From positions 288,001 through 352,000 of the forward strand of contig CAVSZB010000005.1 in assembly GCA_963732385.1 (NCBI GenBank): 64,000 nucleotides of DNA. Reading direction: 5' to 3'. The notes beneath the pieces were generated by a model. It did no database searches. It worked only from the letters and a program-made list of their open reading frames with translations, and had not been told where the DNA came from. A program made the position numbers and the translations under genes. This DNA comes from an uncultured bacterium (GTDB lineage: Bacteria > Krumholzibacteriota > Krumholzibacteriia > LZORAL124-64-63). Within the stretch, counting starts at the first letter, position 1. Every line of letters begins with the position of its first letter. Shown here one piece after another: positions 2,849 through 19,883 of the stretch.

Positions 2849-5533
2849 ATGAATCGCCAACTCCGACTGCTCGTCGTGTTCCTCGCGCTTTCGGCCCTGA
2901 CCACCGCCGCCACCGCCGAGATCCCGGCCATCACGGCCGCGGCCGTGTCGGCCGGCGCGGCGCCCCCGCCGACGCCGGAGGCGCACTTCGCGTTCCGTCC
3001 GGGCGCCGACGGGCAGCTCATCGACTACGAGCAGCTCATCGATTACCTCAGGATCCTCGACGCGGCCTCGACGCGGCTGGAACTGCGCGAGATCGGGGTC
3101 TCCCCGCTCGGCAGGCCGATGTATGTGGCCTTCATCTCGAGCGAACAGAACATCCGGCGCCTGGACGAGCTGCGCGAAATCAACCGCCGCCTCGCGCTCG
3201 ACCCGGCGATCCCCGACCCGGAACGCGACGGGCTGATCGCGCGCGGGCGCGTGTTCCTCATGGCGACGCTCTCCATGCACGCCGGGGAACTCGCGCCATG
3301 CCAGGCCCTGCCGATCTATGCCCACGAACTGGTCACGAGCGTCGACCCCGCGATCATGCGCCAGCTCGACGACGCGGTGTGGATGGTGGTCCCCGCCCAC
3401 AACCCCGACGGACTCGACATGGTGGTGGAGAACTACCGCAAGTACCGCGGCACGGCGTGGGACGGGGCGTCGCTGCCGGCCGTCTACCATCGCTATGTCG
3501 GCCACGACAACAACCGCGATTTCGTGACCCTCACCCAGACGGACACCCGCGCCGTTTCGCGCCTGTTCTCGACCGAGTGGTTCCCCCAGGTGCTGGTGGA
3601 GAAGCACGGCATGGGCGTTTCGGGCCCCCGCTTCTACTGTCCGCCCAGCAACGACCCGATCGCCGAGAACATCGAGGCCGGCATCTGGAACTGGGTCGCG
3701 GTCTTCGGGACCAACCTGGCGCGCGACATGTCCCAGGACGGTCTCGCGGGCGTGGCCCAGCACTGGGCGTTCGACGAGTACTGGCCCGGATCCACCGAGA
3801 CCTCGCTTTGGAAGAACGTGGTTTCGCTGCTGACCGAGAACGCCGGCACCAACGGCGCCTCGCCGCTCTACGTGGAGCCGACGGAGCTGAACGCCGACGA
3901 CAAGGGTCTGGCCGAGTACAAGAAGAGCGTCAACCTGCCGGACCCCTGGCCGGGCGGCTGGTGGCGGCTCGGCGACGCAGTGACCTACGAACTGTCCTCT
4001 TTCCGCTCCCTGCTGCGCACCGCCGGCGCGAACCGCGCCGAACTGCTGCGCCTGCGCAATGACCTCTGCCGACGCGAGGTGGCGCGCGGCCTCAGCCAGG
4101 CGCCCTTCTACTTCGTGCTGCCGCCCGAACAGCGCTCGCGCGGAGAGTGGGTGCAACTCGTCGATCTGCTCCAGGAGCACGGCGTGCGGCTGTTCACGCT
4201 GCCACGGGAGGTCGAGTCCGGCGGACGTCGTTTCACGGCCGGCTCGGTGATCGTGCCGCTCGCCCAGTCCTACCGCCCGTTCATCAAGGAGGTGCTGGAG
4301 CGGCAGAGTTATCCCGTGCGGCACTACACGCCGGGCGGCGAGATGATCCGCCCCTACGACATCACGAGCTGGTCGCTGCCGCTCCACCGCGGCGTGACGG
4401 CGGAGCAGGTCGATGTGCGGGCGCCGGAGCTGGAGGCGGCGTGGCAGCCGCTCGAGAGCGCCTTCGCCCTGCCCGCCCCTGCCACCGGCGTGTCCGCGAA
4501 GAGCTGGGGCGTCGCCTTTGCGGCCAACGAGAATGAGGCCTTCCACGCCGGTTTCCTGGCTTTGAAAGCCGGCCTGCCGGTGCTGCGCACCACAGAGGCG
4601 ACAACGGTCGACGGCACGAGCCTGCCCGCCGGCAGTTTCGTGATCCGCGCCGGCGCCGGACCCACCCTCGCTGCGCTGCTGAACGCCCTGATCGTGCCGC
4701 CGCTGGTGCTCGCCACCGAGCCGGCGGTTGCGATGAGTCCGCTCGGCGCGCCGCGCATCGCCCTCGTCGAGACCGCCTTCCACGACATGGACGCCGGCTG
4801 GACGCGCTTCCTTTTGGATTCCTACGGCGTCCCGTTCACGGTCGTGCGTCCCGGCGAGATCCCGACCCGCGATCTCGCCCGGTACTTCGACGTGATCGTC
4901 TTTCCGAACAGCCAGAAGGAGGAGTTGCTGCATGGGCGCTTCAAGTCCGAAGACACCGCCTATGTGGCCGACGACATCCCGCCGGAGTTCCGCAAGGGCC
5001 TGGGCGCGAAGGGGATGGAAAAGCTGATGGCCTTTGCCGACCAGGGAGGCATCATCCTGGCGTGGGGCGAGGCCTGCGAGCTCTTCCTCGGCGTGCAGGA
5101 GATCAGGCGCGGCAAGGACGAGGTGGAGGAGTTCAGGCTGCCGGTGAATGACGTCAGCGCCAGGCTGGCCAAACAGGGGCTCTCGGTTCCCGGCGCCTGG
5201 CTGCGCGCCCGGGTGACGCAGGACAGTCCGCTGACGTGGGGCATGCCTGAGGAGGCCGGCTTCTTCTCCCGCGGGAAACCGGTCTTGCGCACCTCACAAC
5301 CGGGCCTCGACATCGACCGCCGCGTGCTCGTATTTCACCCCGAGAAGGACATCCTGATGTCGGGCTTCGCCGAGGGCGAAAAGCTGCTCGGCAACACCGC
5401 CGCCGGGGTCTGGGCGCGCAAAGGGAAGGGGCAGTTCGTCCTTTACGCCTTCTCTCCGCAGTTCCGCGGCTCGACGCCGGTGACCTACAAACTGCTGTTC
5501 AACGCGCTGCTGCTGCCCCGGCTCACGCGGTAG
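2849..5533 (+). CDS. Secreted M14 family zinc carboxypeptidase with C-terminal class I glutamine amidotransferase-like domain
   Basis: Signal peptide; HAGE (HxxE), HNPDG, DNNRD, third ligand in EKHGM; C-terminal MDAGWTRFLLD...FSPQFR...TYKLLFNALL. Confidence 0.85.
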   Translation: MNRQLRLLVVFLALSALTTAATAEIPAITAAAVSAGAAPPPTPEAHFAFRPGADGQLIDYEQLIDYLRILDAASTRLELREIGVSPLGRPMYVAFISSEQNIRRLDELREINRRLALDPAIPDPERDGLIARGRVFLMATLSMHAGELAPCQALPIYAHELVTSVDPAIMRQLDDAVWMVVPAHNPDGLDMVVENYRKYRGTAWDGASLPAVYHRYVGHDNNRDFVTLTQTDTRAVSRLFSTEWFPQVLVEKHGMGVSGPRFYCPPSNDPIAENIEAGIWNWVAVFGTNLARDMSQDGLAGVAQHWAFDEYWPGSTETSLWKNVVSLLTENAGTNGASPLYVEPTELNADDKGLAEYKKSVNLPDPWPGGWWRLGDAVTYELSSFRSLLRTAGANRAELLRLRNDLCRREVARGLSQAPFYFVLPPEQRSRGEWVQLVDLLQEHGVRLFTLPREVESGGRRFTAGSVIVPLAQSYRPFIKEVLERQSYPVRHYTPGGEMIRPYDITSWSLPLHRGVTAEQVDVRAPELEAAWQPLESAFALPAPATGVSAKSWGVAFAANENEAFHAGFLALKAGLPVLRTTEATTVDGTSLPAGSFVIRAGAGPTLAALLNALIVPPLVLATEPAVAMSPLGAPRIALVETAFHDMDAGWTRFLLDSYGVPFTVVRPGEIPTRDLARYFDVIVFPNSQKEELLHGRFKSEDTAYVADDIPPEFRKGLGAKGMEKLMAFADQGGIILAWGEACELFLGVQEIRRGKDEVEEFRLPVNDVSARLAKQGLSVPGAWLRARVTQDSPLTWGMPEEAGFFSRGKPVLRTSQPGLDIDRRVLVFHPEKDILMSGFAEGEKLLGNTAAGVWARKGKGQFVLYAFSPQFRGSTPVTYKLLFNALLLPRLTR

Positions 5534-5586
5534 AGCCGGGCCAGCCCCAGGCCCGAGCGAAGGCATATCCCATCTGCCGTGGGTCG

Positions 5587-6813
5587 ATGGGCCTGCCGCC
5601 GGAAGGGGGCGTCGTGCGCAGGATCGTGGGGTTGACGCTGCTGCTGGTGGGGGGCCTGCTCGCGGGCGAGGGGGCGGTGCGCTACTTCCAGGCCGCCGTG
5701 CCGGCGCCGCTGGACACCCCCTACCTGCCGGACGCGGCGGCCGGTTACCGGCTGCGCCCGAGCGGGCCGACGGACGATCCGGCGGCGGACGACCACGTCA
5801 ACACGCTCGGCTTCCGCGACCGCGAGCATCCCCCGGTCAAGCCGGCCGGGACACGGCGGGTGCTGGGGGTTGGCGACTCGTTCGTATACGGCGCGGTGCC
5901 GCCACGCGAAAACTTCCTGGAGGTCGCGGCGCGGGAGCTGTCGACCGCGCCGGACACGTTGGCGCCGGTGGAGATGGTCCTGATGGGCTGTCCCGGCTGG
6001 AACACCGAGCAGGAGGTCGGCATCGTCCACGAACTCGGGCCGAAGCTGGCGCCCGACCTGATCGTGCTCTGCTTCTCGGTCGACACCGACGTGACCGGCA
6101 TCCCGGTGCGCGGCCGGATCATCCAGGGCAACCTGCTCTACGTCGGCGCGCAGACCCCCGGCCTGAACACGCTGCGGCGATCGCGGCTGTTCGTGCTCGG
6201 CGAGCAGGTCTACCTGCGACGGTTGACGGCGACGGCGCGACGCTTCGCGCGGGCGCTGACCGGACGGCGGGCACCGGCGGACGCGCCGGCCGTCGCCGGA
6301 GCCGCCGACACCGCGTTCGTGCCGACGACCCGCCACTATCTCGGCCGCCAACTGCGCCTGCTGCCGCTGTTCGCGCCGAACCCCGATCCCCACACCGCGG
6401 AACTCTGGCGAGAGGCGGAGCGGCAGCTCGACCGGTTCGACGACGCCTGCCGTGCGGCGGGGGCCCCGTGGCTGATGATGGTGGCGCCGGCGGAGATCCA
6501 GGCCGACCCGAGGCTGCGCGACGTCGTGTTGGCGAGCGCGGATCGACCGTCCGGCACATTCGATTTCGACCTGCCGCAGCGTCGGCTCGCCGCCTGGGCC
6601 GGGGCGCACGGCGTGCCGCTGGTCGATCCGCTTGGGGTGCTGCGCGCCGCGCGCGGCCAGGGGCGCCTGTACGCGCCGAACAACAGCCACTGGAACGCGC
6701 GCGGAAACGCCTTGGCGGGCCGGCTGCTGGCGACAGCGCTCGCGTCGCGCCTCGCGGGGGAGCCGGAAACCGCGCCACCGTCCTCGTCGACGCCTAGAAC
6801 TGGAAGTAGATGA
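5587..6813 (+). CDS. SGNH/GDSL hydrolase-family protein (AlgJ/AlgX-like O-acyltransferase partner)
   Basis: N-terminal TM helix, NTLGFRD, GDSFVYG block I, GWNTEQE, C-terminal NSHWNARGN. Confidence 0.78.
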   Translation: MGLPPEGGVVRRIVGLTLLLVGGLLAGEGAVRYFQAAVPAPLDTPYLPDAAAGYRLRPSGPTDDPAADDHVNTLGFRDREHPPVKPAGTRRVLGVGDSFVYGAVPPRENFLEVAARELSTAPDTLAPVEMVLMGCPGWNTEQEVGIVHELGPKLAPDLIVLCFSVDTDVTGIPVRGRIIQGNLLYVGAQTPGLNTLRRSRLFVLGEQVYLRRLTATARRFARALTGRRAPADAPAVAGAADTAFVPTTRHYLGRQLRLLPLFAPNPDPHTAELWREAERQLDRFDDACRAAGAPWLMMVAPAEIQADPRLRDVVLASADRPSGTFDFDLPQRRLAAWAGAHGVPLVDPLGVLRAARGQGRLYAPNNSHWNARGNALAGRLLATALASRLAGEPETAPPSSSTPRTGSR

Positions 6814-8257
6814 ACGGCGGGTTGGCGTAGAGCCGGAAGGCGGCCGCGGCGATCGTCACGGCCACCAGCAGTTGCGCCAGGACCAGCCGCGGCCACGGGC
6901 GCAGGTCGGCCAGCCAGTCGGGGCGGCCGGTCGCCGCCTGCGTGGCGTCGAGCGCCAGCGTCGCCGCGGCACCGACCAGCACGTGGAGCGGGAACGCGCC
7001 CCAGCCGGCCGCCGGGCGGACGATCCCCGCCAGCACCGCCCCCGCCACACCGAAGTCGGGCGCGCGGAACAGCACGAAAGCGGCCGCCACGCCGTGGAAG
7101 ACGAGCAGCGCGCGGGCGATCTGCGACAGGCGTGCCGGCCAGGCCGCCGGCCATGGCCGCGGCGCCCGTCCCCTTCCCGCCGCCAGCCGCCAGGCCAGCC
7201 ACAGCCCGTGCAGCAGCCCCCAAGCCACGAACGTCCAGCGGGCGCCGTGCCACAGCCCGCACAGCGCCATGGTCGGCACGATCGCCAGCAGGTACGCCAG
7301 CGCCAGTTCGTGCGATTCCGCGCCGAGCCGCAATTGCTCCGTGAAACGGAGCGCCCGTCCCAGCAGCGGCGTGAAAAGATAGTCGCGGATCCAGGTCGAG
7401 AGCGAGATGTGCCAGCGTTGCCAGAACTCGGCGGGAGAACGGCTCAGGTACGGAGCGCGGAAATTCTCCATCAGTTCAAAGCCGAGCAGGCGCGCGATGC
7501 CGCGGGCGATGTCGGAATAGCCGGCGAAGTCGCCGTAGATCTGCAGGGTGAACGCGTAGACCCCGGCCAGCAGCGATGCGCCTGTGGCTTCGCCCGGAGT
7601 GGCGAACGCGCGCTCGACGAACGGCGCCAGCGTGTCGGCGATCGCGATCTTGCGGAAGTACCCGATGACGATCAGCGCCAGGCCGGTCTCGACCTGACGA
7701 CGCGTGACGCGCCGCGGCGCAGCCACCTGCGGCAGCAATCGTGACGCCCGCTCGATCGGTCCGGCCACCAGCTGCGGGAAGAACGCCACGTAGAGGGCGA
7801 AGTCGGCCAGGTTGCGGGCCGGCGCGAGCCGCCGACGATAGACGTCGAGGGCGTAGCCAAGGGTCTGGAACGTGTAGAAGCTGATCCCGACCGGCAGGGC
7901 GACGCGCAGGGTCGGCAAATCGGCCTGAAGTCCGCAGCGGTTCAGCAGCACGGCTGCCGAGCCGGCGAAGAAATCGAAATATTTGAAGACGCCGAGCAGG
8001 CCGAGGTTTCCGGTCAGGCTGGCGGCCAGCAGGGCGCGACGACGCCCCGGCGCTGCGGTCGCGTCGAGCCCCCGCCCCACGCCGTAGTCGAGCAGGGTGG
8101 AAAACCACAACAGCGCGAGGAAGCGCCAGTCCCACCAGCCGTAGAAGAGGTAGCTGGCGAGCAGCAGGAAGCGGTTCTGGCTCCGGTGCGACAGGCGGGG
8201 GACGACCGCCAGCACCGCTGCCAAAAAGACGAGGAAGGGGAGCGAGTTGAACAACAC
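6794..8257 (-). CDS. MBOAT family O-acyltransferase (AlgI/DltB-like)
   Basis: MLFNS..F, LPVGISFYTFQ, FFPQLVAGPIER, QIYGDFAGYSDIA, ENF..PY, FWQRWHISLSTW, GLWHGA, terminal FIYFQF. Confidence 0.93.
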   Translation of the reverse strand: MLFNSLPFLVFLAAVLAVVPRLSHRSQNRFLLLASYLFYGWWDWRFLALLWFSTLLDYGVGRGLDATAAPGRRRALLAASLTGNLGLLGVFKYFDFFAGSAAVLLNRCGLQADLPTLRVALPVGISFYTFQTLGYALDVYRRRLAPARNLADFALYVAFFPQLVAGPIERASRLLPQVAAPRRVTRRQVETGLALIVIGYFRKIAIADTLAPFVERAFATPGEATGASLLAGVYAFTLQIYGDFAGYSDIARGIARLLGFELMENFRAPYLSRSPAEFWQRWHISLSTWIRDYLFTPLLGRALRFTEQLRLGAESHELALAYLLAIVPTMALCGLWHGARWTFVAWGLLHGLWLAWRLAAGRGRAPRPWPAAWPARLSQIARALLVFHGVAAAFVLFRAPDFGVAGAVLAGIVRPAAGWGAFPLHVLVGAAATLALDATQAATGRPDWLADLRPWPRLVLAQLLVAVTIAAAAFRLYANPPFIYFQF

Positions 8258-8281
8258 GTCCGGTGACCGCCCCTGGGAAGA

Positions 8282-9850
8282 TCAGCCCCGGAGACGCTTC
8301 GTGTAGATGATCCGGTCGTCGCCGATGGCGTAGTAGTCGGCGATGCACGCCGCCTCGTCATAACCGCAGCCGAGATAGAAGCCGCGCGTGGAGGTGTAGC
8401 CGGAACTGCCGGACGTTTCGATCACCGACAGGTTGCCGCCGCGCGCGAGAATCAGCGCCTCGCAATGGCGCACGAGCGCCTTGCCTGTACCGCGCCCCTG
8501 GCGATCGGGCGCCACGCCGAGCCAGTAGATGTCCCAGGCGCCGAGGGTGCAGGGGGTAGGACCGGCGCAGACCCAGCCCGCCACCCCCGCCTCGTCTTCG
8601 GCCACGAACGACTGGTAGTGCCCGCCGGAGCCGGCCTCGAGCGCGTCGTCGAGCACCTCGGCGGCCACTTCCAGCTCGTCGGGCCGGAAAAAGCCGGTGG
8701 CGGCCAGCAGATCGAGCACCGGCTGGCGGTCGGCGGGGACGCTGTGGCGGATCGTGGCGCGCCGCGGGGCGGCGGCGTTGCGCGAGGCGCGCGCCGGAAC
8801 GGCCGGCGGCGCACCGTCGGCCGGAGCCGGACGGCGCGCCGCGGCGTTGGCCACCAGGGCGCCGACGAACGTGGCGTAGCGCACCCCGCCCGCCTTCAGG
8901 GCGGCGGAAAATCCGGCGTCGGGCGAAATGTCGGGGTCGACGTTCACCTCGAGAATGAACGGGGCGCCGCGGCGCGAAAGGCGGAAATCCACGCGAGCAT
9001 AGTCGCTGCAGCCACAGGCGTCCCAGGCGGCCCGGGCGAGCCGCGTCACCTGCGCGGCAAGCCGCGCCGGCAGGCGCGCCGGCAACACGCGACACAGACC
9101 GTGGTACTCCGGCGTGCCCGGCACCCATTTCGCCCGGTAGCCGACAAGGTGGGGCAGCTCGCGTCCGTAACCGCTGAAATCGATCTCGGCGATCGGCAGG
9201 ACGGTCACCTCGGACCCGCGCTGCCACAGCCCGACGTTCAGTTCGCGCCCGTCGACGAACTGTTCCACCAGCGCCGGCTGGCCGAACTTCGCGTGGATTT
9301 CGGCCACGAGCCGCCGCAGGGTGACGCCCGGACCGGGGCAGAGCGAGTGCGTGTCGATCCCCTCGCTGGCGTCCGCCGAAACCGGTTTGACGATCAGCGG
9401 CCCGCGCGGCAATCCCCGCGTCGGCACTTTCTCCCCCACGCGCACCAGCAGGCCGCCGGGGACCGGCAGCCCCGCGCCCTGCAGCACGGCCCGCGTGCGC
9501 CACTTGTCGAGCGTGAGGGCGGCGCACGGCGTGTCGCCGCCGGTGCACCCCTTGCCGTGCGCCGCGCAGAGTGCCGGCACCAGGAGCTCGGCGCCCGGCG
9601 CATCGCCGAGCGACTCGATCAGGTTGAATACGACCGGCTCGGGCGCGTGCGCGACCGCAGAAATGACTTCGGCGAGCGTGCGGACCGCCACGACCCGATG
9701 CACGTGCCCCGCACGCGCCAGAGCCGCGGCCACCGCCTTCGCCTGGGAGAGGACCCCCGCGTCGCTCTCGGCACAGCTCGCGCCGGGGTACAGGCCCGCG
9801 GCGGCCGGAGCGTTGTGCAGCACGAGGACGGACGGCTTTTCACGCGCCAT
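8282..9850 (-). CDS. Ddl-like ATP-grasp ligase fused to a C-terminal GNAT acetyltransferase
   Basis: VFNLIE, LDKWRTR, IVKP...ASEGID, EQFVDGRE, YRAKW, RVDFR...ILEVN; an Ala/Pro linker, then GNAT (WDIYWLGV...QGRGTGKAL...TRGFY...GY). Confidence 0.85.
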   Translation of the reverse strand: MAREKPSVLVLHNAPAAAGLYPGASCAESDAGVLSQAKAVAAALARAGHVHRVVAVRTLAEVISAVAHAPEPVVFNLIESLGDAPGAELLVPALCAAHGKGCTGGDTPCAALTLDKWRTRAVLQGAGLPVPGGLLVRVGEKVPTRGLPRGPLIVKPVSADASEGIDTHSLCPGPGVTLRRLVAEIHAKFGQPALVEQFVDGRELNVGLWQRGSEVTVLPIAEIDFSGYGRELPHLVGYRAKWVPGTPEYHGLCRVLPARLPARLAAQVTRLARAAWDACGCSDYARVDFRLSRRGAPFILEVNVDPDISPDAGFSAALKAGGVRYATFVGALVANAAARRPAPADGAPPAVPARASRNAAAPRRATIRHSVPADRQPVLDLLAATGFFRPDELEVAAEVLDDALEAGSGGHYQSFVAEDEAGVAGWVCAGPTPCTLGAWDIYWLGVAPDRQGRGTGKALVRHCEALILARGGNLSVIETSGSSGYTSTRGFYLGCGYDEAACIADYYAIGDDRIIYTKRLRG

Positions 9851-10841
9851 GCGGCTGCTCCAGACGCTCGCACGCGGCGGCGATGATGCCGCCGATCAGG
9901 TCGCGAAAGGCCATATCGGCGAAGCGCGCGATGATCGGCAGATCGGAGTGGTTGGCATTGAGGCCCGGCAGCGGATTGATCTCCATGAAGCTGGGCACGC
10001 CGCCGGCATCGAGACGGATGTCGACGCGGGCGCCGTCGCGGCACTCGAGCGCGAGGTACGACGCCACCGCCAGCGCCTCCACGCGTTCGCGCAGCGGTCC
10101 GGGCGCCAGTTCGTCGTAATCGACGACGTTCTCGTACTCGTGCTTGTTCTGGAACGAGTAGATGGCCCGCTCCACCGGACGACGGATCCGCACCTCCATG
10201 GTGCCGATCGCGCGGGCCCGCGGCCCGTTGCCGAGCAGGCCCACCGTGAATTCGCGTCCCGGAAGGTACTCCTCCACCAGCACCGGCTGGCGCAGCCGCG
10301 CCAGCAGGTCGCGGCAGACACGCGCCAGGTCGTCCGGGCCGGCCGCGTACGACGCTTCAGCGATCCCCTTGCCGGTCCCCTCGGCGATCGGCTTGGCGAA
10401 CAGCGGATAGCGCAGCCGCGCCAGGGCGACGGCGCGCAGGTCGTCCTCGTCGCGCACGACGTGGAAGGCGGGCGTGGCCAGGCCGGCGTCGCGCACGAGG
10501 CGCTTCGTCACCGCCTTGTCGAGCGTGACGGCGCAGACCAGCGGATCGGAGAAGGTGTAACCGATGCCGTACAGCTCCAGCAGGGCCGGCACCTGAGCCT
10601 CGCGGCTGCGCCCGTCGAGACCCTCGGCGATGTTGAAAACGAGGTCCCACCGCTCGCCCGCGACGAGGCGCGCGCACAGCGCGCGGGCGTGTCCGATGCG
10701 GTCGGTGTCGTGCCCGAGCTCGCGGATCGCCCCCTCGAGCAGATCGATGGTTTCCTCGCTGTCGAACTCGGCCACCTCTTCGGCGGTGTGGCCGAGCGCG
10801 AGCCAGTCGGAGCAGAGGTCGTACGTCAATCCGATGCGCAT
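9840..10841 (-). CDS. Ddl-like ATP-grasp ligase (non-canonical)
   Basis: ATG 10841 preceded by AGGAGGA; MRIGLTYDL, FNIAEG...REAQVPALLE, LDKAVTK, KPIAEGTGKGI, EEYLPGREFTV, RVDIR...EINPLPG. Confidence 0.88.
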   Translation of the reverse strand: MRIGLTYDLCSDWLALGHTAEEVAEFDSEETIDLLEGAIRELGHDTDRIGHARALCARLVAGERWDLVFNIAEGLDGRSREAQVPALLELYGIGYTFSDPLVCAVTLDKAVTKRLVRDAGLATPAFHVVRDEDDLRAVALARLRYPLFAKPIAEGTGKGIAEASYAAGPDDLARVCRDLLARLRQPVLVEEYLPGREFTVGLLGNGPRARAIGTMEVRIRRPVERAIYSFQNKHEYENVVDYDELAPGPLRERVEALAVASYLALECRDGARVDIRLDAGGVPSFMEINPLPGLNANHSDLPIIARFADMAFRDLIGGIIAAACERLEQPHGA

Positions 10842-12163
10842 GGTCCTCCTCCGCGTGCGCGCCGGCTCAGGCGCACCGTGCCGGCCGGCATGATCGCCGT
10901 GGCGCGTCCGCGCGCCAGATCCCACACGCCGGTGCCCTCCGGCGTCTGCTCCGGGCCGACCGCCTCCAGGTGCGCGCCCGGCTCCGGGTAGCCCACCATC
11001 AGCCCCTCGAAGTTGCGCAGCACGGTGTGCGTCGGGCTGACCGACACGACATAGTTGGGCAGCAGCGGGATCTTTCCGCCGCCGTGCGGCACATCGACGC
11101 AGAACGTGGGGATGGCCAGGCCACTCACCCTGCCACGCAGATATTCCATGATCTCGATGCCACGGGATAGCGGCGTGCGGAAGTGCTCGACCCCGCGCAC
11201 CAGGTCGCACTGGAACAGGTAGTACGGCCGCACGCGCAGCCGCAAGAGACCTCGGCAGAGCTGCTCGATCACGCGGGGGTGGTCGTTCACCCCACGCATC
11301 AGAACCGTCTGATTGCCGAGCGGGATACCGGCGTCGGCCAGTCGGGCGCACGCCGCGGCCGATTCCGGCGTCAGTTCGCGCGGGTGGTTGAAGTGCGTGT
11401 TGACCCAGAGCGGGTGGTAGCGGCGCAGCATGCGCACGAGTTCCTCAGTGATACGCATCGGCAGCGTCACCGGCGCTCGCGTGCCGATCCGGATGATCTC
11501 CACGCTCGGCACCTGGCGCACCGCCTGCACGACCCGTTCGAGCGCGGCCGTGGGCAGGGTGAGCGGGTCGCCGCCGGAGATGATCACATCGACGATCTCC
11601 GGGTGCCGGACCAGGTACGCCACCGCCTGCCGCAGATGTTCCTCGGCGATGACGCCTTCGCGAGCGCCCGTCTTGCGCTTGCGCGTGCAGTGCCGGCAGT
11701 ACATGGCGCACGCCGAGGTCGCCACCAGCAGCGCGCGGTCGGCGTACCGGTGCACCAGACCCGGCACCGGCATGTCGGCGTCTTCATCGAGCGGATCGTC
11801 GCGCAAAAATGGCGGGTCCCACAACTCCCGGGCATGCGGCAGGCTCATCTGGAGAATGGGGTCGGCCGGATCGCCGGGCCGGATGAGCGACGCGTAGTAG
11901 GGCGTGATGGCGAACGGGAACCGGGCCGCCGCTTCGGTCAGGCCGGGCGGCGCCTGCACGCCGGGGAGGAACTCGCACAACTGCTCCGGCGTGCGCAGGC
12001 GGTTGCGCATCTGCCAGCGCCAGTCGTCCCACCGGGGGACATCCTGCAGATCGGGGCGCCAGGCGGCCGGCGCCACATGCGTGAGGTCGGGCAGAACGAA
12101 CGTCGCCTCGGGTGCGGCGCCGCGCGCGCGCGCCTCGCACACCGCCATGCTGCGAGGTTTCAT
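10826..12163 (-). CDS. kamA: KamA family radical SAM/PLP enzyme (lysine 2,3-aminomutase-like)
   Basis: WDDWRWQMRN, GLVHRY.DR, CAMYCRHC, SGGDPL, THFNHPRE, NQTVL..GVND, PYYLFQCD, DVPHGGGKIP (PLP lysine). Start uncertain (12220/12163/12148). Confidence 0.92.
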   Translation of the reverse strand: MKPRSMAVCEARARGAAPEATFVLPDLTHVAPAAWRPDLQDVPRWDDWRWQMRNRLRTPEQLCEFLPGVQAPPGLTEAAARFPFAITPYYASLIRPGDPADPILQMSLPHARELWDPPFLRDDPLDEDADMPVPGLVHRYADRALLVATSACAMYCRHCTRKRKTGAREGVIAEEHLRQAVAYLVRHPEIVDVIISGGDPLTLPTAALERVVQAVRQVPSVEIIRIGTRAPVTLPMRITEELVRMLRRYHPLWVNTHFNHPRELTPESAAACARLADAGIPLGNQTVLMRGVNDHPRVIEQLCRGLLRLRVRPYYLFQCDLVRGVEHFRTPLSRGIEIMEYLRGRVSGLAIPTFCVDVPHGGGKIPLLPNYVVSVSPTHTVLRNFEGLMVGYPEPGAHLEAVGPEQTPEGTGVWDLARGRATAIMPAGTVRLSRRARGGGPCASD

Positions 12164-12356
12164 GCTTTCCCGGCAACCCCCCGCCGTCCACCCGGCGGCC
12201 GCGGCCGCCGCGCGTGTCAAAAGTGATTTCGCCGCGCGCCGCCGACGCCGCCGGTGGGATCGCCCAAGTTTGTCATAGATCCGGAAACCGATCGGATTCG
12301 AATCTGCGACAACCTTTGACGGCCAACCGTCCGCCTCGACCCGCGTCGCGCATCGC

Positions 12357-12366
12357 GATTATAATC
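12357..12366. promoter_or_regulatory. Possible bidirectional -10 box between the divergent kamA operon and phosphoesterase gene
   Basis: Palindrome GATTATAATC gives TATAAT on both strands in an AT-richer divergent intergenic region. Confidence 0.4.
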
Positions 12367-12483
12367 TTGGGGTTCCATGAATCAAGCGCAACATGCCCTT
12401 TCCAGTGGGGATTTTGAACTTTTCTTGCTCCTGAGACAATTTTGGCTGAAATTTGACTTTCGGACAGGAGAGGAGTCACGACG

Positions 12484-13365
12484 GTGCCTGCCTGTTTTTT
12501 CGTTTCCGACCTCCACGGGAGGCGCTCCCGTTACGAATCGCTCTTCGCCGCGATCGCGGCGGAGCGGCCGACGGCCGTGTTCCTCGGCGGTGATCTGCTG
12601 CCGCACGCGTTGGTGGCACCGCACGCGCCCGGCGGAGCTCCTCCGGATTTCAGCGACGACTATCTGGCTGTGCGATTCCTGCGCCTGCGCGACAGGCTCG
12701 GCGCGGACGCCCCGCGCGTTTTCGTAATCCTGGGCAACGACGACGCGCGCGCCGAGGAAACCACCATGCTCGCCGCGGCCGCACGCGGCGCCTGGGAGTA
12801 CGTGCATGAGCGCGCGGTGGAATTCGGCCAATGGCGCGTGTGCGGCTACGCCTGTGTCCCCCCCACCCCGTTCCGCCTCAAGGATTGGGAACGCTACGAC
12901 GTGTCGCGCTTCACCGATCCCGGCTGCCTGCCACCCGAGGACGGGATACGCACGGTACCGGTGCCGGAACACGAGATCATCCACGGCACGATCGCGGACG
13001 ACCTGGCGCGTTGCACGGGCGACGTCGACATGGAGCGCGCGATCATCCTTTTCCACACCCCGCCGTACGATACGCGGCTCGACCGTGCCGCGCTCGACGG
13101 CAAAATGATCGACCACGTCCCGCTCGATCCGCACATCGGCAGCATCGCCGTGCGACGCTTCGTCGAGGCGCGCCAGCCGCTGCTGACCCTGCACGGCCAC
13201 GTGCACGAGTCGACGCGCCTCACCGGGGAGTGGCGCCAGCAACTCGACCGTACCTGGATGTTCCAGGGGGCGCACGACGGACCGGAACTGGCGCTCGTGC
13301 GTTTCGATCCGGAACGTATCGGGGACGCGACGCGGGAATTGCTGAGGCCGCCGGCGGATGGCTGA
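12484..13365 (+). CDS. Metallophosphoesterase (calcineurin-like, Icc-related)
   Basis: SDLHG, GGDLL, GNDD, HTPPY, HGHVHE motifs. Confidence 0.85.
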   Translation: MPACFFVSDLHGRRSRYESLFAAIAAERPTAVFLGGDLLPHALVAPHAPGGAPPDFSDDYLAVRFLRLRDRLGADAPRVFVILGNDDARAEETTMLAAAARGAWEYVHERAVEFGQWRVCGYACVPPTPFRLKDWERYDVSRFTDPGCLPPEDGIRTVPVPEHEIIHGTIADDLARCTGDVDMERAIILFHTPPYDTRLDRAALDGKMIDHVPLDPHIGSIAVRRFVEARQPLLTLHGHVHESTRLTGEWRQQLDRTWMFQGAHDGPELALVRFDPERIGDATRELLRPPADG

Positions 13366-13380
13366 GCGGACGGCCATCCG

Positions 13381-16300
13381 TCAGTGGGCCTGCCCCCCGA
13401 TCGGCAGCAACCGTGCCGGATCCGTGGCGGCGCCGATCTTCACCGCGTAGCTCGTCTTCGTCGCGATGTCGTCGTCGGTGACGATGTGGACATCGAGCAG
13501 GCCGTCCGTGCGGTAGCCGGTGCGCTGGAAGTTCATCTCGGCCAGGCAGAGACTCCACCCCTCCATCCAGATCAGCAGATCGCGGCGCTGCTCCTCGGTG
13601 CCCCGGAAATGGACCAGCACGTCGATGTCGCTGCCGGGGCCCGCGGAACCGCTTTTCGTGCTGCCGAAGACGTAGAAGGCCTGCACGCCGAAACGCGCGG
13701 GGTCGAGCGAGGCCGCCACCCGCTCGGCCATGCTCATGCGCCAGCGCCAGAACAGGTCGCCCTGCGGCGCCGGCGCAGCGGCCTTCGGCTCCCCGATCTC
13801 GGGTCCGGCGGGCGGGCGGCCGAGCAGGCCGACCGCCTCGTCGAGATCGGCGTTCATGAAGACGCTCAGCACCAGGCCGTCGGTGGCCGCCGGCACGTCG
13901 ATCACGCGCAGGCACGCCTCGAGGTGGGCAAATTCCGGGAGCAACTGGCCGAGCATGTTGGGAGAGGCGAGCAGGAACCGTTCGTTGAAGACGATGCCCT
14001 TGTCGTCCGGATAGAGCGGCAGGTAGCGGATCTGCGCCTCGACAAGATCCTGGAAGAAGTGCGTTCCGAACGAGAGGTCCGGGACATAGTGCCCCTGCTG
14101 GCGTGCGATCTCGATCAGCATGGCCGTGTTGTTGATGTCGGAGTAGGTGATGCTGACGCCCAGCTTGATGTCGCCGCGACTGCCCCACCGACCCGGACCC
14201 ATGAGGATGAAGCGCCGCTTCGGCAGGATCTTGTTAAGGAGGCCCACGGCGCGACCCACGGCCAGCATCTCGTGCCGATCCGGCAGCTCGCCGTACTTGA
14301 CCGGATCCACATAGACCACGTGCGTGATCGGCGGCATGAGGCCGTTCGAAATGTAGCGGTTGGCCGTGAAGACGAGGCGCTCCTCGGCGATGTCCTTGGG
14401 GATCGGGGCGGCCACGGCGCCGAGCGCGCTGCTCTGCTGCCGGCACTGCAGCAGGTAGAAGTTCTTCCCGTCCGACGCGAACTCGATGTCCACGGGGTGG
14501 CCCAGCTTGCTCTCGAGGGTCTGCAGGATGAACTGTAACTGCCTGATGAACGGCGTGTTGCCGGTCAGCCCCTCGAACGTCACCACGAGATCGTCCCGCT
14601 CGGGGTCGAGCTGGCCCTTCAGCGGACGGCGCAGGCGACCGCCATCGAAGATCGACACGATCTGGGCGAGCGCCGGCAGGTCGTCGGCGTGCTTCCTGAG
14701 GAACTCCCGCACCGGCACCGTCTCGAAGGTGTTGGTGACCAGGTTGATGACGTCGATCTTCTGCGGCGCGTAGCGCACGACTTCGTCGATGGAAACGTTG
14801 ACCCGCAGGTTCGGCTGGCCCGGGGCGATCAGCACCGGGTAATCGTCGCTGGTGCGGTCCACGGCGCGCGTGCCGAGCCCAGCCACCAGGCGGATCAGGC
14901 CGTCCTCGCGGCGGATGCGCGCCGACCAGCGGAACTCGTTGCGGCTGAATGCCACGCCGGCGAAGGAGGGGAGGTAGTAGTCGCCGACCCGCGTGCCGAC
15001 CACCTCCTGGATCATGATCCCCATCTCCTCGTGGAAGTCGAGGAGGCCGCGCTCGGCGCGGTACTCGATGGGATCGGGTCCGAACACCGAGGCATAGACT
15101 TCGGCAATGGCGTCCATCAACGCCGTGAGCCGCTCCTGCTTCGAGCCCTGGTTGGCCAAAAAGAGGCTCTTGTATTTGCCGGAGAAGGCCGAGCCGATGC
15201 GGTCCTCGAGCAGCGAGGAACTGCGCACGATCAGCGGGCGGTCGTCGAAGTCGTCGAGAGCCACCGAAAGGCCCTTCACGATCTCGGGCGGGAACTGGCT
15301 GTTCTTGAACGTCTGTACGATGTGCGGATATTCGAGGCGGACCTGGTTGATCTCCTTGTACTTCTGCTCAACCACCTCGTTGAGGTTGTTGTAGTGCATG
15401 AAGCTGAGCGTCACGTCCGAGGCTACGTACCAGGTCTTCGGGATGCGCAGGTTGTCGAGCAGCCCTTCGTCTCCGGAATTCTTACGGAGGACCTGCGCGG
15501 CCAGGAAGAGGCCGGCGCTCTTGCCCCCCAGCTTGCCGAGGCTGTCGGAGGTATAGATGATGTTCTGCAGCAGCTCGTCGTAGTCCGCCACGTCGATGTA
15601 GTTCTTGGCGATGTTGATGAAGAGCAGCTGCTCGGTGAAGAACCGCCGGATCAGCGACACGCGCACGTTCTTGCTCGTGGCGATGGGCAGCTCGGCGTCC
15701 TGGGGCGCGATGGCGCGGTAGCGACGGATGGCGTCCACGACGTCCGGCAGCGGAGTGTGCAGGCTGACCAGGGGGGTGACCAGGAAGTTGAGCTTGTCCT
15801 CCTGGATCCACATGCGCACCCTCGCGAGGATCTCCTCATCGCCCAGATGCGCGGCCGCGATGCGGAAGATCTCCTTGCTCATCGCCTCGGTCACGCCGGC
15901 GGCGCGACGTTCATAGGGACGGTTCGTGTCGCCGTAGCGCTCGTCCTGCTCGGACATCTGGTTCGGCGAAGTGGACTCGAGCAGCCGCTCCGCCTCCGCG
16001 ACACCGGCCCAGCAAAGATGATTGAGCATCTTGTGCGAGAGACTGAGGAAGAAGCTCTTGTCGGTCTGGCGCAGCATGTCGAGAACGACCTGCCACTCGC
16101 CGCGGTGCGTGCGCGTGAACTCCGCCGAGGCCGCCTGGTACTCTTCGACCAGCACCTTCATCCGCTGGTGCATGATGAAATGGCCCAGCCGGTCGGCGAT
16201 GGAGCTGATTAGCCGGTGTTCCTCCTTGAGGAACGGGCCCTCGCCGGCCGGCGGCTTCTCCTCGCTGTAGGCCACGGTCACGCGCCCGACGTATTCGTCA

Positions 16301-16569
16301 ATCACGATGATGTCCGCGCTCATCGTCCAGGGGGACTCGACCCAGTCGTCGCTCTTGAAGATGAGATTCTCGTACGTGATGCGCGCCCGGCAGACGTCAG
16401 GGTACTGCCAGCCCTCGGGGATGGTCCTCACGATCCGCTCGAGCATCTCGCGCGTGGAGAGTTGCGGCTGGCCGAGAATCTCCTCGATCCGGTAAAGGCA
16501 GTTCAACTCCTTGGCCCGCTCGTGCAGGGAGTAGAGCAGCTTGCCCAGGTTCTCGTTCGGCTCCGTCAT
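13381..16569 (-). CDS. GAF-like / PEP-synthase(PPDK)-type ATP-grasp / nucleotidyltransferase multidomain protein
   Basis: ATG 16569 overlaps the upstream stop. N-terminal ERAKELNCLY...GWQYP...GPFLKEE; LGGKSAG, VRSSSLLED...FSGKYKS, QEVVG, GLG, DIEF...LLQCR; GPGRWGS...SFGTHFF; C-terminal FGSTKSGSAGPGSDIDVLV. Confidence 0.85.
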   Translation of the reverse strand: MTEPNENLGKLLYSLHERAKELNCLYRIEEILGQPQLSTREMLERIVRTIPEGWQYPDVCRARITYENLIFKSDDWVESPWTMSADIIVIDEYVGRVTVAYSEEKPPAGEGPFLKEEHRLISSIADRLGHFIMHQRMKVLVEEYQAASAEFTRTHRGEWQVVLDMLRQTDKSFFLSLSHKMLNHLCWAGVAEAERLLESTSPNQMSEQDERYGDTNRPYERRAAGVTEAMSKEIFRIAAAHLGDEEILARVRMWIQEDKLNFLVTPLVSLHTPLPDVVDAIRRYRAIAPQDAELPIATSKNVRVSLIRRFFTEQLLFINIAKNYIDVADYDELLQNIIYTSDSLGKLGGKSAGLFLAAQVLRKNSGDEGLLDNLRIPKTWYVASDVTLSFMHYNNLNEVVEQKYKEINQVRLEYPHIVQTFKNSQFPPEIVKGLSVALDDFDDRPLIVRSSSLLEDRIGSAFSGKYKSLFLANQGSKQERLTALMDAIAEVYASVFGPDPIEYRAERGLLDFHEEMGIMIQEVVGTRVGDYYLPSFAGVAFSRNEFRWSARIRREDGLIRLVAGLGTRAVDRTSDDYPVLIAPGQPNLRVNVSIDEVVRYAPQKIDVINLVTNTFETVPVREFLRKHADDLPALAQIVSIFDGGRLRRPLKGQLDPERDDLVVTFEGLTGNTPFIRQLQFILQTLESKLGHPVDIEFASDGKNFYLLQCRQQSSALGAVAAPIPKDIAEERLVFTANRYISNGLMPPITHVVYVDPVKYGELPDRHEMLAVGRAVGLLNKILPKRRFILMGPGRWGSRGDIKLGVSITYSDINNTAMLIEIARQQGHYVPDLSFGTHFFQDLVEAQIRYLPLYPDDKGIVFNERFLLASPNMLGQLLPEFAHLEACLRVIDVPAATDGLVLSVFMNADLDEAVGLLGRPPAGPEIGEPKAAAPAPQGDLFWRWRMSMAERVAASLDPARFGVQAFYVFGSTKSGSAGPGSDIDVLVHFRGTEEQRRDLLIWMEGWSLCLAEMNFQRTGYRTDGLLDVHIVTDDDIATKTSYAVKIGAATDPARLLPIGGQAH

Positions 16570-18320
16570 TTCAGAATCACACCCCGTCCGCTGCGGCCGT
16601 CCACCCGGATGCACAGCGGGGAATCCAGTCGCACGTGCCGCGCGTGCAAGGATTCTCCCGTCGCGGGCTGCGTGTCCAGCCAGGTCCAATCGATGCGATG
16701 CATTCCCGCGTGGTGCACGGAAAAATAGAATACCTGGAAACTCGTGATGTTGTGGAAGAAATGCGAGCCCTGGCTGCGCTCGACGTTCATTTCCGGCAGG
16801 GTCGCCTCGACGATCGCCCGGGCCCCCGAGATCTGCGCCCACTCGACCGGGATACCGAGCCACGGATCGCTGCTGCCCCAGCGCCCGAACCCGATCAGCA
16901 GGTAGGGGCGTCCGGCCGCCGTAAGGGTGCGGTTGAAGACCTCGATCTCGCCCGCCACGGCGCGCGTGGCCTTCGCGTCGAAGGTCTCCAGCTTGACGTA
17001 GACGACATCGCGGATATCGCCGGTCTCGCCATTGCCGAGCACGGTTTCAGAGGCCGCCAGCACGCCGGCGCCCAGCATCGACTCCGGGGCGACCTCCACC
17101 TGCGCCTGCGAGACCACCATTGGACGCACCTGCAGGAAACCGAACCGCGCCGGCAATCCGCTGTCTGGCCCGAGGGTCAGGGCGAATTCGATTTCAACCG
17201 CCTCGCCGACCACCTCCCCGCAGACCCGCAGCAGCTGCCGCAGCAGCTCGTTCAGCGGGATATCGGGCAGGCCGAGGACCGGCGCGAAGGTGAGCACCCG
17301 CGCCCCGTCCGCCCCGGCGCCCATGATGAGGCGATCGTTGGCGGCATCGTACGTGGAGACGAGGTGGTTGAGCACACCGTCGTAGTCGGCCCGCACGAGG
17401 TCCGCCCGCGCCAGATATTCTGTCTCGCGCGTGGGGTCGTAGGCCGGCGGCCGGCCCATGTTCACGGCCCAGAATTCCGTCTGGCTCTGGCGCACGAGCT
17501 CGCGCGCGGAGGCGATCGGGGGCATGGCGTCGGGCCAGGCGGGCGAGTAGGTCCAGCAGCGGCCGCCGTCGACGATCTGCTTGCCGAGTCCGAGCGCGAG
17601 ATCCACGACCCCGTCCTCCGGACGGGCGTTTCCGGTCGGGTAGAAGTTCCAGGAGCGCGCCACGCCGGAGATGTGGGGGTAGAACAGGTCGCCGCGGCGC
17701 TCCCCCACGACCTCCTGCACGACCACGGCCATCTTCTCCTGTGCGTCCGGCTCCCGGGTGGCGCGGCGGTAGTCGCGCGCGCCGCGGAAGAAGGTCGAGG
17801 CGTACACGAACTTGATCGCCTCGGTCAGCTTGCGGAAACGCGTGTCGGTGTCGGGTTGGTTGTTGGGAATCATCTTCGTGGCATAGACACCGGCGAACGG
17901 CTCGTACATGGCGTCCTCGAGCAGGCTCGAGGAGCGCAGGGCGAGCGGCTGGTGCGTCCGCTCCACCAGCGAACGCAGATCGCCCAGGATCTCCGCAGGC
18001 AGGTCGGCGTGCAGGAAAACGTTGGCGATGACATCGTCCGCGTCGCCCGACCGCGCCCTGTCGCTCAGCCGGTTGCGCTCGATGAACAGGTCGAAAATCT
18101 CCGTCGTCAGCACCAGCAGGTCGGGGATGGCCACTTCGATGCCGGGGAAACCATGCGGATCGAGGCTGTCGCGCAGCGCTTCGCGGATCGCCGCCAGGCC
18201 CGACGCCTTGCCGCCGAGCGCGCCATCGCCGAGACGGGCGAACGTCTGGGCGCCGTCGCGGCGATCCCGGACGAAGAGCGGCACGTCGGGAACAGAAGAG
18301 CGGGGATTCGATCGACTCAT
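16566..18320 (-). CDS. PEP/pyruvate-binding (PPDK N-terminal ATP-grasp) domain protein lacking the PEP-utilising barrel
   Basis: LGGKASG, LRSSSLLED...FAGVY, QEVVG, GLGKQIV, EIEF...FLQVRP, GFGRWGS...SQGSHFF. ATG 18320 follows AGGAGGGAG. Confidence 0.87.
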   Translation of the reverse strand: MSRSNPRSSVPDVPLFVRDRRDGAQTFARLGDGALGGKASGLAAIREALRDSLDPHGFPGIEVAIPDLLVLTTEIFDLFIERNRLSDRARSGDADDVIANVFLHADLPAEILGDLRSLVERTHQPLALRSSSLLEDAMYEPFAGVYATKMIPNNQPDTDTRFRKLTEAIKFVYASTFFRGARDYRRATREPDAQEKMAVVVQEVVGERRGDLFYPHISGVARSWNFYPTGNARPEDGVVDLALGLGKQIVDGGRCWTYSPAWPDAMPPIASARELVRQSQTEFWAVNMGRPPAYDPTRETEYLARADLVRADYDGVLNHLVSTYDAANDRLIMGAGADGARVLTFAPVLGLPDIPLNELLRQLLRVCGEVVGEAVEIEFALTLGPDSGLPARFGFLQVRPMVVSQAQVEVAPESMLGAGVLAASETVLGNGETGDIRDVVYVKLETFDAKATRAVAGEIEVFNRTLTAAGRPYLLIGFGRWGSSDPWLGIPVEWAQISGARAIVEATLPEMNVERSQGSHFFHNITSFQVFYFSVHHAGMHRIDWTWLDTQPATGESLHARHVRLDSPLCIRVDGRSGRGVILK

Positions 18321-18383
18321 CGCGGGCTCCCTCCTCACGCAGCACAACCGGTGGAGGGCGGGCAGGGGCGCGACCGGGAACAG

Positions 18384-18418
18384 GCGGCGCGGGGACGGCA
18401 CGCCCGTCCCCGCGCCGC
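18384..18418 (-). terminator. 15-bp perfect stem-loop downstream of gdhA (terminator or mRNA-stabilising hairpin)
   Basis: GCGGCGCGGGGACGG-cacgc-CCGTCCCCGCGCCGC; the U tail is weak. Confidence 0.45.
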
Positions 18419-18469
18419 GAAGTGGGGACGCCGGGCCGCGCCGGAGCGCCGACGCCCGGCATCCAGCGC

Positions 18470-19756
<1,287 letters not shown>

Positions 19757-19883
19757 GTCGATCATCCTCTCTCGGTCCTGGTCTGCGAGCGTGGGACGCG
19801 CCCGGAAGGGGGCGGAAAGCCCGTCGCCGGTGTCCGCGAAACATCTCGCTATCCGGGAAAGAAGCCTCCCGCCCAGCGTCCCG

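Follow-up and report, generated by a model that had tools for sequence, protein, structure and literature searches.

What do bacteria make with a lysine 2,3-aminomutase-type enzyme, two ligases that share the fold of Ddl (D-Ala-D-Ala ligase) and an acetyltransferase that travel together? The question arises from a stretch of 64,000 nucleotides (the window) of an uncultured Krumholzibacteriota bacterium (assembly GCA_963732385.1, contig CAVSZB010000005.1, positions 288,001 to 352,000), whose genome measures 3.8 Mb and is 96% complete. In the window, a cassette of 3 genes encodes the aminomutase KamA, the ATP-grasp ligase LigA, and a second ATP-grasp ligase, LigB, fused to a GNAT acetyltransferase. 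We propose that these parts form a pathway that is widespread among bacteria, is not previously described in the literature searched, and likely makes an acetylated beta-lysine amide, a product predicted from the sequences of the enzymes. No description of the cassette was found in that literature; a mention in older surveys or subscription journals is possible. Hundreds of species hold the cassette, and nearly all annotations call it “D-alanine-D-alanine ligase,” a name contradicted by residue analysis. It points to an unrecognised beta-lysine metabolite and to 2 new ligase specificities.

Do the genes belong together? A LigA scan of species genomes confirmed at least 463 of at least 599 candidate stretches, and the best 80 were analysed as loci. 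These loci come from Planctomycetota, Lentisphaerota, Spirochaetota, Bacteroidota, Thermodesulfobacteriota, Acidobacteriota, Pseudomonadota, and others. kamA is present in 63 of them, LigB in 70, GNAT in 58, and all 4 parts in 49; where 4 kb of flank is available on both sides, the 4 parts stand together in 37 of 53 loci. A fifth part, a second GNAT fused to a deacetylase, joins 19 of the 80. The association also holds for scattered genes: where kamA is not next to LigA, as in 10 genomes, a kamA of the cassette clades turns up at another site in all 10 and a GNAT in 8. Among 24 relatives in the host's family, LigA, GNAT, and kamA (E<1e-100) are found, linked or not, in the same 13 genomes and are missing from the remaining 11; the GNAT-deacetylase fusion is in 8 of the 13 holders and 0 of the 11 others. 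Every neighbouring pair is fused in some protein, except kamA: among the top 120 long matches per search, we count 69 LigA-LigB, 2 LigA-LigB-GNAT, 91 LigB-GNAT, and 19 deacetylase-GNAT fusions. Judging from these fusions, LigA and LigB probably work as a pair. kamA, LigA, LigB, and GNAT, with the optional GNAT-deacetylase, are one conserved four- to five-part pathway. Co-occurrence in other genomes, on which the initial annotation of the window had staked its proposal of such a pathway, is borne out by a block that recurs across many phyla. In a plasmid collection, there was no LigA match at E 1e-40.

What does the aminomutase act on? The full length of KamA can be aligned with that of a clostridial lysine 2,3-aminomutase (PDB 2a5h, E 3.5e-134), and the protein has the Pfam domains Radical_SAM and LAM_C. 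The alignment confirms that it keeps CxxxCxxC, the pyridoxal phosphate-binding lysine of GGGK, and the 2 Asp residues (Asp320 and Asp357), as read earlier from the window, and shows Arg161 as well; all of these residues are shared without exception by the 61 cassette KamAs aligned. Counted along 2a5h, Asp320 and Asp357 correspond to clostridial D293 and D330, and R161, D320, and D357 fall on Arg134, Asp293, and Asp330, which we take to be the substrate-binding residues. The 2 Asp positions tell lysine from glutamate 2,3-aminomutases. KamA is a member of the KamA family TIGR00238 (307.4 bits; cut-off 199.2), and its best NCBIfam score is on the lysine enzyme model, above the glutamate, arginine, and EpmB models; on EpmB it reaches 250.5 bits against a cut-off of 369.3. 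In quick trees that included 3 true AblA sequences, the cassette KamAs form 2 clades with support 100 each, both separate from AblA. The window kamA and LigA belong to the clade in which Planctomycetota and Lentisphaerota abound, while most family relatives carry the other. The host carries a second, unlinked cassette-type kamA of that other clade (C7:1325263-1326570), and a longer, distant KamA-like gene on contig C5. In 2 relatives (G008 and G016), window-type ligases occupy the corresponding site but are not preceded by kamA, and a kamA of the other clade sits where the host has its C7 copy. The KamA clades thus seem able to replace each other in trans, in keeping with a free metabolite. 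As a side observation, the host's C7 kamA and C7 GNAT-deacetylase fusion are probably remnants of the family's usual cassette.

The ligases have the fold of Ddl and a different substrate site. The model of LigA (predicted local distance difference test score [pLDDT] 92.7) matches DdlA best, with Z 31.3 and root-mean-square deviation (rmsd) 2.6 over 301 aligned residues; LigB (pLDDT 94.7) does so with Z 33.4 and rmsd 2.4 over 304, and matches to LysX/RimK are weaker (Z 21-25). The ATP, metal, and catalytic residues listed for BpDdl in the available part of PMC6899670 (K104, K148, E192, K220, R260, D262, E275, and N277) are retained in LigA and LigB, aligned through the host Ddl, and in the fused forms too. 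By the same alignment, the D-Ala-site residues Tyr221 and Leu287 of Ddl are replaced in both: LigA has Glu in 64/81 and, at the Leu287 site, Asp in 81/81, and LigB replaces a Ddl site residue with Trp in 67/67. The N-terminal GGxSxE motif and His are D-Ala-site elements of Ddl as well. GGxSxE is absent from both ATP-grasp proteins, as the initial annotation had it, and present in the true Ddl that the host encodes on contig C8. Other positions are invariant in each ligase: E25-x-D27, E73, R80-E81, and S299-D300 in LigA (81/81), and E79, S162, and W242 in LigB (67/67). We infer that the acidic residues line the donor and acceptor pockets. On the Ddl model the 2 ligases score 139.9 and 100.2 bits against a cut-off of 243, and they fall far under all Ddl/Van cut-offs. 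LigA and LigB are not Ddl, and their substrate sites are rebuilt and acidic; with the D-Ala-site residues lost and a canonical Ddl elsewhere, the earlier concern that they make only D-Ala-D-Ala falls away.

The wider family includes other orphan modules. Sister tandem-fused Ddl-like ligases (P0224, L114-L191; matches named Myxococcales) share the acidic signature of LigA and adjoin an S58 (DmpA-type) peptidase gene in 50 of the 51 loci with enough flank, and constitute a second orphan ligase/hydrolase module. Separately, genome G026 (L110:1-3313) combines a Ddl-like ligase with a KamA and an M20 peptidase; that KamA scores best on the glutamate 2,3-aminomutase model, where its 574 bits lie under the cut-off, and the module is possibly a beta-glutamate counterpart. 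At L112:3837-8972, a Ddl-like ligase is itself fused to an M20 peptidase and adjoins genes for a gamma-glutamyltranspeptidase and an N-formylglutamate amidohydrolase.

The acetyltransferase belongs to a family with a solved structure. The best structural match of the window GNAT is PDB 2r7h, a “putative D-alanine N-acetyltransferase” (E 2e-58; next match 6e-8), which we take to be Dde_3044 of Desulfovibrio alaskensis G20; its closest characterised structures, far behind 2r7h, are protein N-acetyltransferases. It has no match to TIGR03827, the AblB model, and by this comparison is not AblB. In the available part of PMC8836040, Dde_3041 of D. alaskensis G20 is annotated as lysine 2,3-aminomutase, Dde_3042 and Dde_3043 as Ddl-like, and Dde_3044 as GNAT, and at 15 uM copper all 4 genes are down (log2 fold changes -1.89, -2.66, -1.90, and -1.67). 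This is weak support for co-regulation because very many other genes changed. Cassette-type GNATs also occur fused to a MazG domain in several proteins (P0303, P0307, and P0313), one of them named as coming from Planctomycetaceae.

The fifth part is not in the window. It consists of an N-terminal GNAT fused to an acetylpolyamine-deacetylase domain, and the host encodes an unlinked copy, 46% identical, at C7:1121784-1123517. The best structures for the deacetylase domain are acetylpolyamine amidohydrolases (6phr, 2e-74; 9gkz, 9e-68). The domain retains RPPGHH and EGGY, has an insertion in the L2 loop, and carries PTG where the PIS gatekeeper motif is expected. The accessible text of PMC11532494 describes RPPGHH, XGGY, and an extended L2 loop as features of polyamine deacetylases, among them one that also removed acetyl groups from lysine peptides and from a protein. 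By its motifs the fifth part resembles ApaH, and we predict a polyamine-type deacetylase.

Is this a known pathway in disguise? The cassette shares with AblA/AblB a lysine 2,3-aminomutase-type enzyme and a GNAT acetyltransferase, but it adds 2 ATP-grasp ligases, its GNAT is a 160-aa domain of the 2r7h type, its KamA clades are separate, and some genomes have both systems. The host genome yielded no AblB by TIGR03827, a search whose positive control matched. Three cassette holders (G006, G017, and G019) also carry an operon of ablA, a sodium:solute symporter gene, and ablB (L103, L104, and L105), which makes it probable that the product is not N-epsilon-acetyl-beta-lysine alone. Ddl/Van ligases are alike in fold and in ATP, metal, and catalytic residues; the cassette ligases differ from them in lacking GGxSxE, in having acidic or aromatic residues at the D-Ala site, in scoring under the cut-offs, and in coexisting with a separate host Ddl. 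EpmA/EpmB likewise combine beta-lysine from an aminomutase with what looks like a link to polyproline translation; in contrast, the cassette has ATP-grasp enzymes, no LysRS-like ligase, and no efp linkage, and EpmA coexists with it in some genomes. All host matches to EpmA (TIGR00462) are under the cut-off, the best being a 518-aa ORF (open reading frame) that we read as LysRS-like beside prfB, and none of the 41 genomes of the host's class has EpmA over the cut-off. Of the earlier statement that the window lacks efp, epmA, and lysine-fermentation genes, the epmA part thus extends, by this cut-off, to the whole genome. The deacetylase of the fifth gene resembles ApaH in its catalytic motifs and extended L2 loop, and differs in its fused N-terminal GNAT, its place in a biosynthetic cassette, and PTG for PIS.

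The N-acetylglutaminylglutamine amide (NAGGN) route deserves separate mention. The ligase of its synthase Ngg is an ATP-grasp domain. NAGGN and the cassette share the logic of a non-ribosomal acetylated dipeptide, in which an acetyltransferase is coupled to peptide-bond formation, with a hydrolase in the cluster (Ngg, AsnO, and an aminopeptidase in the available part of PMC8070244), whereas the cassette has 2 Ddl-type ligases, an aminomutase rather than an amidotransferase, and a deacetylase rather than a peptidase. Names of the NAGGN type are absent among the NCBIfam and Pfam matches of the window proteins, where Ngg itself was not compared directly, and the NAGGN neighbour cluster (AsnO and aminopeptidase) was not recognised around the cassette loci. 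The cassette would work like the NAGGN and AblAB routes, yet it probably does not belong to the former and is shown to be neither Ddl, nor AblAB, nor EpmAB. Two candidate precedents, Pelobacter (PMC3543383) and negamycin (10.1101/2025.07.31.667836), were set aside: in their available parts, they concern ablAB and a different cluster, respectively.

What might the product do? Two observations may connect the cassette with the translation of proline. The first concerns elongation factor P (EF-P) in the host family, sampled in 61 genomes. The tip loop of EF-P is PGKGP in 4, PGKGG in 20, and other or unmatched in 10 of the 34 cassette holders, and PGKGP in 21, PGKGG in 5, and other in 1 of the 27 non-holders. 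PGKGP is described as the loop of an EF-P that works unmodified in the available part of bioRxiv 10.1101/2023.09.18.558224. At the level of the host family, the cassette is scarce where EF-P has the unmodified-type loop. When the loop residue is masked in a tree of EF-P from 21 members of the family, the states interleave in 2 subclades (support 92 and 93). As an aside, a genome from a cassette-holding genus (G059, L249) has an EF-P-like protein with the odd tip loop VKMQQRRP beside an Arg-tip paralogue.

The second observation concerns kamA itself. Its N-terminal extension is not conserved in the cassette, yet [DE]PP is found in 57 of 75 cassette KamAs and in 0 of 3 AblA (7 anchorless rows and duplicates were dropped, and rows at contig edges counted only if the motif was present). 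The motif lies mostly 7-27 codons into the gene. At the nucleotide level, 58 of 78 loci have A-N-CCTCC in the reading frame, 2 have it in another frame, and the first Pro codon is CCT in 49/61, compared with 269/2432 Pro codons in gene cores. Such Pro-Pro motifs pause ribosomes in an EF-P-dependent manner. The window kamA lacks [DE]PP, as do those of G001 and G002, and the host's C7 kamA has ETEPP coded CCA-CCG. Two other explanations of the motif were rejected: anti-Shine-Dalgarno pairing with kamA's own ribosome site occurs in only 6/56, and the length of the shifted frame expected from a programmed frameshift at CCT-C is not conserved.

From these features we assemble a pathway. KamA, with its cofactor and Asp residues intact, would convert L-lysine to beta-lysine, and this intermediate would be freely diffusible, since kamA of either clade can sit elsewhere in the genome. 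LigA and LigB, probably as a pair, would each form an ATP-dependent amide bond by acyl-phosphate chemistry of the Ddl type. Their substrates would be basic, with beta-lysine joined to a second beta-lysine, to lysine, or to a diamine. GNAT would acetylate an amine, and the optional GNAT/deacetylase fusion could reverse this step and so set the charge of the pool. The product would be positively charged and polyamine-like, and output would likely be tuned by ribosome speed at proline pairs, with [DE]-P(CCT)-P early in kamA acting as an EF-P-dependent pause. An acetylated beta-lysine amide or peptide, as first proposed for this locus, is still the best chemistry predicted for it, while the modified cell-wall precursor offered alongside it finds little support. 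The osmolyte option has lost ground because 3 holders have a separate ablA-symporter-ablB operon and the fifth partner is acetylpolyamine amidohydrolase-like. If correct, the tie to proline translation bears on EF-P activation in lineages where EpmA is not found.

We hold the reading of the product as a small, polyamine-like, acetylated beta-lysine amide tied to proline translation as tentative, with slightly less than even confidence, and the following points weigh against it. KamA lacks not only the C-terminal Cys cluster of the clostridial enzyme, an absence recorded in the initial annotation and seen again in the 2a5h alignment, but also C268 (the Zn cysteines). On the AblA equivalog TIGR03820 it scores 483.6 bits, under the cut-off of 525.4, with a match that stops at model position 367 of 417; true AblA of relatives reaches 753-762 bits. 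LigA's acidic signature is no proof of beta-lysine, since kamA, GNAT, and deacetylase are all missing from 78 closely related loci of the sister tandem ligases. The cassette is not accompanied by a diamine source: an Orn/Lys/Arg decarboxylase is in 3 of 13 holder relatives and 0 of 80 loci, and neither spermidine-synthase nor decarboxylase families follow it. In the window copy, near-invariant residues differ (LigA A296 for Pro in 80/81; LigB D305 for Asn in 66/67 and L252 for Thr in 64/67), and these departures may weaken it. The CCTCC of the motif pairs in folding with an upstream purine run in 39/62, and an RNA hairpin may therefore account for part of the motif. The Fisher p of 2e-7 for cassette versus EF-P loop is too strong, since related genomes are not independent samples; the EF-P tree is short and weakly supported. 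Outside the host family, PGKGP is found in 1/12 holders and 8/78 non-holders, and 11 of the 12 holders match neither loop pattern.

A rather unlikely reading keeps the chemistry and makes the product a compatible solute or nitrogen store like NAGGN, with no role in translation and an EF-P pattern due to shared history. That pattern does fail beyond the host family, and the available parts of 2 sources are encouraging: Ngg both acetylates and makes the peptide bond of NAGGN, in an operon with a hydrolase (PMC8070244), and beta-lysine is already an osmolyte precursor (PMC11337218). However, 3 genomes (G006, G017, and G019) carry an ablA-symporter-ablB operon besides the cassette, transporter or channel genes cluster with it in 3 of 81 loci at most, and the in-frame Glu-Pro-Pro motif and its CCT bias are left unexplained. 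An unlikely, bolder reading would make the cassette an EF-P activation system not recognised before: the ATP-grasp ligases, in place of a tRNA-synthetase paralogue, would attach a reversibly acetylated beta-lysine-based group to EF-P or provide it as a small ribosome-binding cation, the Glu-Pro-Pro pause at the start of kamA would let EF-P activity regulate the pathway that modifies it, and lineages changing to a self-sufficient PGKGP EF-P would lose the cassette. Quite unlikely is a covalent version, in which beta-lysine is attached independently of EpmA to the tip lysine of EF-P, then extended or acetylated, with Glu-Pro-Pro as a feedback sensor. The near exclusion of cassette and PGKGP in the host family, a loop reported to work unmodified (10.1101/2023.09.18.558224, in part), speaks for it, together with the lack of EpmA over the cut-off in 41/41 genomes of the class, the known role of beta-lysine as an EF-P modifier in gammaproteobacteria (PMC13602936, available part), and the protein N-acetyltransferases nearest to GNAT behind 2r7h. 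It has to contend with EpmA over the cut-off in 5 of 10 cassette holders of other phyla, 4 holders in which only Arg-tip EF-P-like proteins were found (G102, G076, G179, and G176), 53 genomes outside the family with HVKPGKGG and no cassette, the absence of efp beside the cassette in any locus examined, and ligases closer to Ddl than to the protein-modifying LysX/RimK.

Two further explanations concern the enzymes themselves. It is improbable that this KamA clade uses another basic amino acid or that the copy in the window is a decaying extra, with no beta-lysine amide made here: the 2 KamA clades do stand apart from AblA and under its cut-off, and the window has its own substitutions and has lost the motif, but Arg161, Asp320, and Asp357 do not vary, the lysine model outscores those for glutamate and arginine, and all 3 window ORFs are intact and 88-97% identical in 2 congeners. 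An alternative cell-wall block, whether a dipeptide of the Van type or beta-lysine in a cross-bridge or amide, is highly improbable. The Ddl fold, the best sequence matches, and the MBOAT gene close downstream in the window recommend it; the canonical Ddl of the host, ligase scores far from those of Ddl/Van, the absence of MBOAT and of any recurrent cell-wall gene cluster in the 80 loci, and the ability of cassette genes to scatter yet stay together in genomes all tell against it.

Table 1. Cassette features in the window (positions count from the first letter of the window).
Feature	Position	Strand	Remarks
kamA, lysine 2,3-aminomutase-type radical SAM/PLP enzyme	10826..12163	-	445 aa from ATG; cassette clade I (PVC-type)
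LigA, Ddl-fold ATP-grasp ligase	9840..10841	-	333 aa; Pfam Dala_Dala_lig_C, model fold
LigB-GNAT fusion ORF	8282..9850	-	522 aa; Pfam Dala_Dala_lig_C + GNAT
LigB domain, second Ddl-fold ATP-grasp ligase	8831..9850	-	roughly the first 340 residues of the fusion
GNAT acetyltransferase domain fused to LigB	8282..8767	-	2r7h family, not AblB
Sigma-70-like promoter match TTGATT-16-TATAAT 5' of kamA	12358..12385	-	consensus match only

How is the cassette organised in the window (Table 1)? The overlapping start and stop regions described for the 3 genes measure 16 nt between kamA and LigA and 11 nt between LigA and LigB-GNAT on the minus strand, and GGAGGAGG stands 5' of LigA. The promoter match is conserved in G001, a genome of the same genus, and its -10 doubles as the -10 of a divergent match toward a metallophosphoesterase gene. 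A palindromic stretch (GATTCGAATC, CCGATCGG) at window 12278-12305, between promoter match and kamA, is also kept in G001. It is a possible candidate operator, though no cassette-type TetR, a regulator whose gene recurs in 17 clustered loci, was found in the host. An Rfam search of window 5000-14000 gave no match, and a protein atlas offered generic names only for the cassette proteins. In 4 metatranscriptome runs from one study, 6-11% of the words are present; contigs about 90-95% alike span all 3 genes, and 2 bridge gene junctions. These contigs stem from a relative and are no evidence of transcription, which contigs cannot show.

The neighbourhood contributes several minor observations. An MBOAT gene on the minus strand follows 24 nt downstream of the cassette (window 5587-8257 region) and is convergent with a plus-strand ORF bearing a GDS motif, presumably akin to SGNH hydrolases; G001 has the same layout. 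MBOAT was rejected as a pathway member, as 0/80 distant loci carry it. In G008 and G016 (L106:5345-6682; L107:10927-12267), a gene for a divergent Orn/Lys/Arg decarboxylase faces the cassette in convergent orientation and is otherwise seen in the family only in G000 (C6:15604-16941) and G001. All 4 genomes hold window-type ligases, and the 2 features may coincide by shared ancestry. On the other side of the cassette, window 12484-21119 encodes the divergent metallophosphoesterase, 2 PPDK_N-domain proteins (one with a C-terminal nucleotidyltransferase domain), a glutamate dehydrogenase, and a DinB-like protein, and this block stays beside the cassette in G001, G008, and G016.

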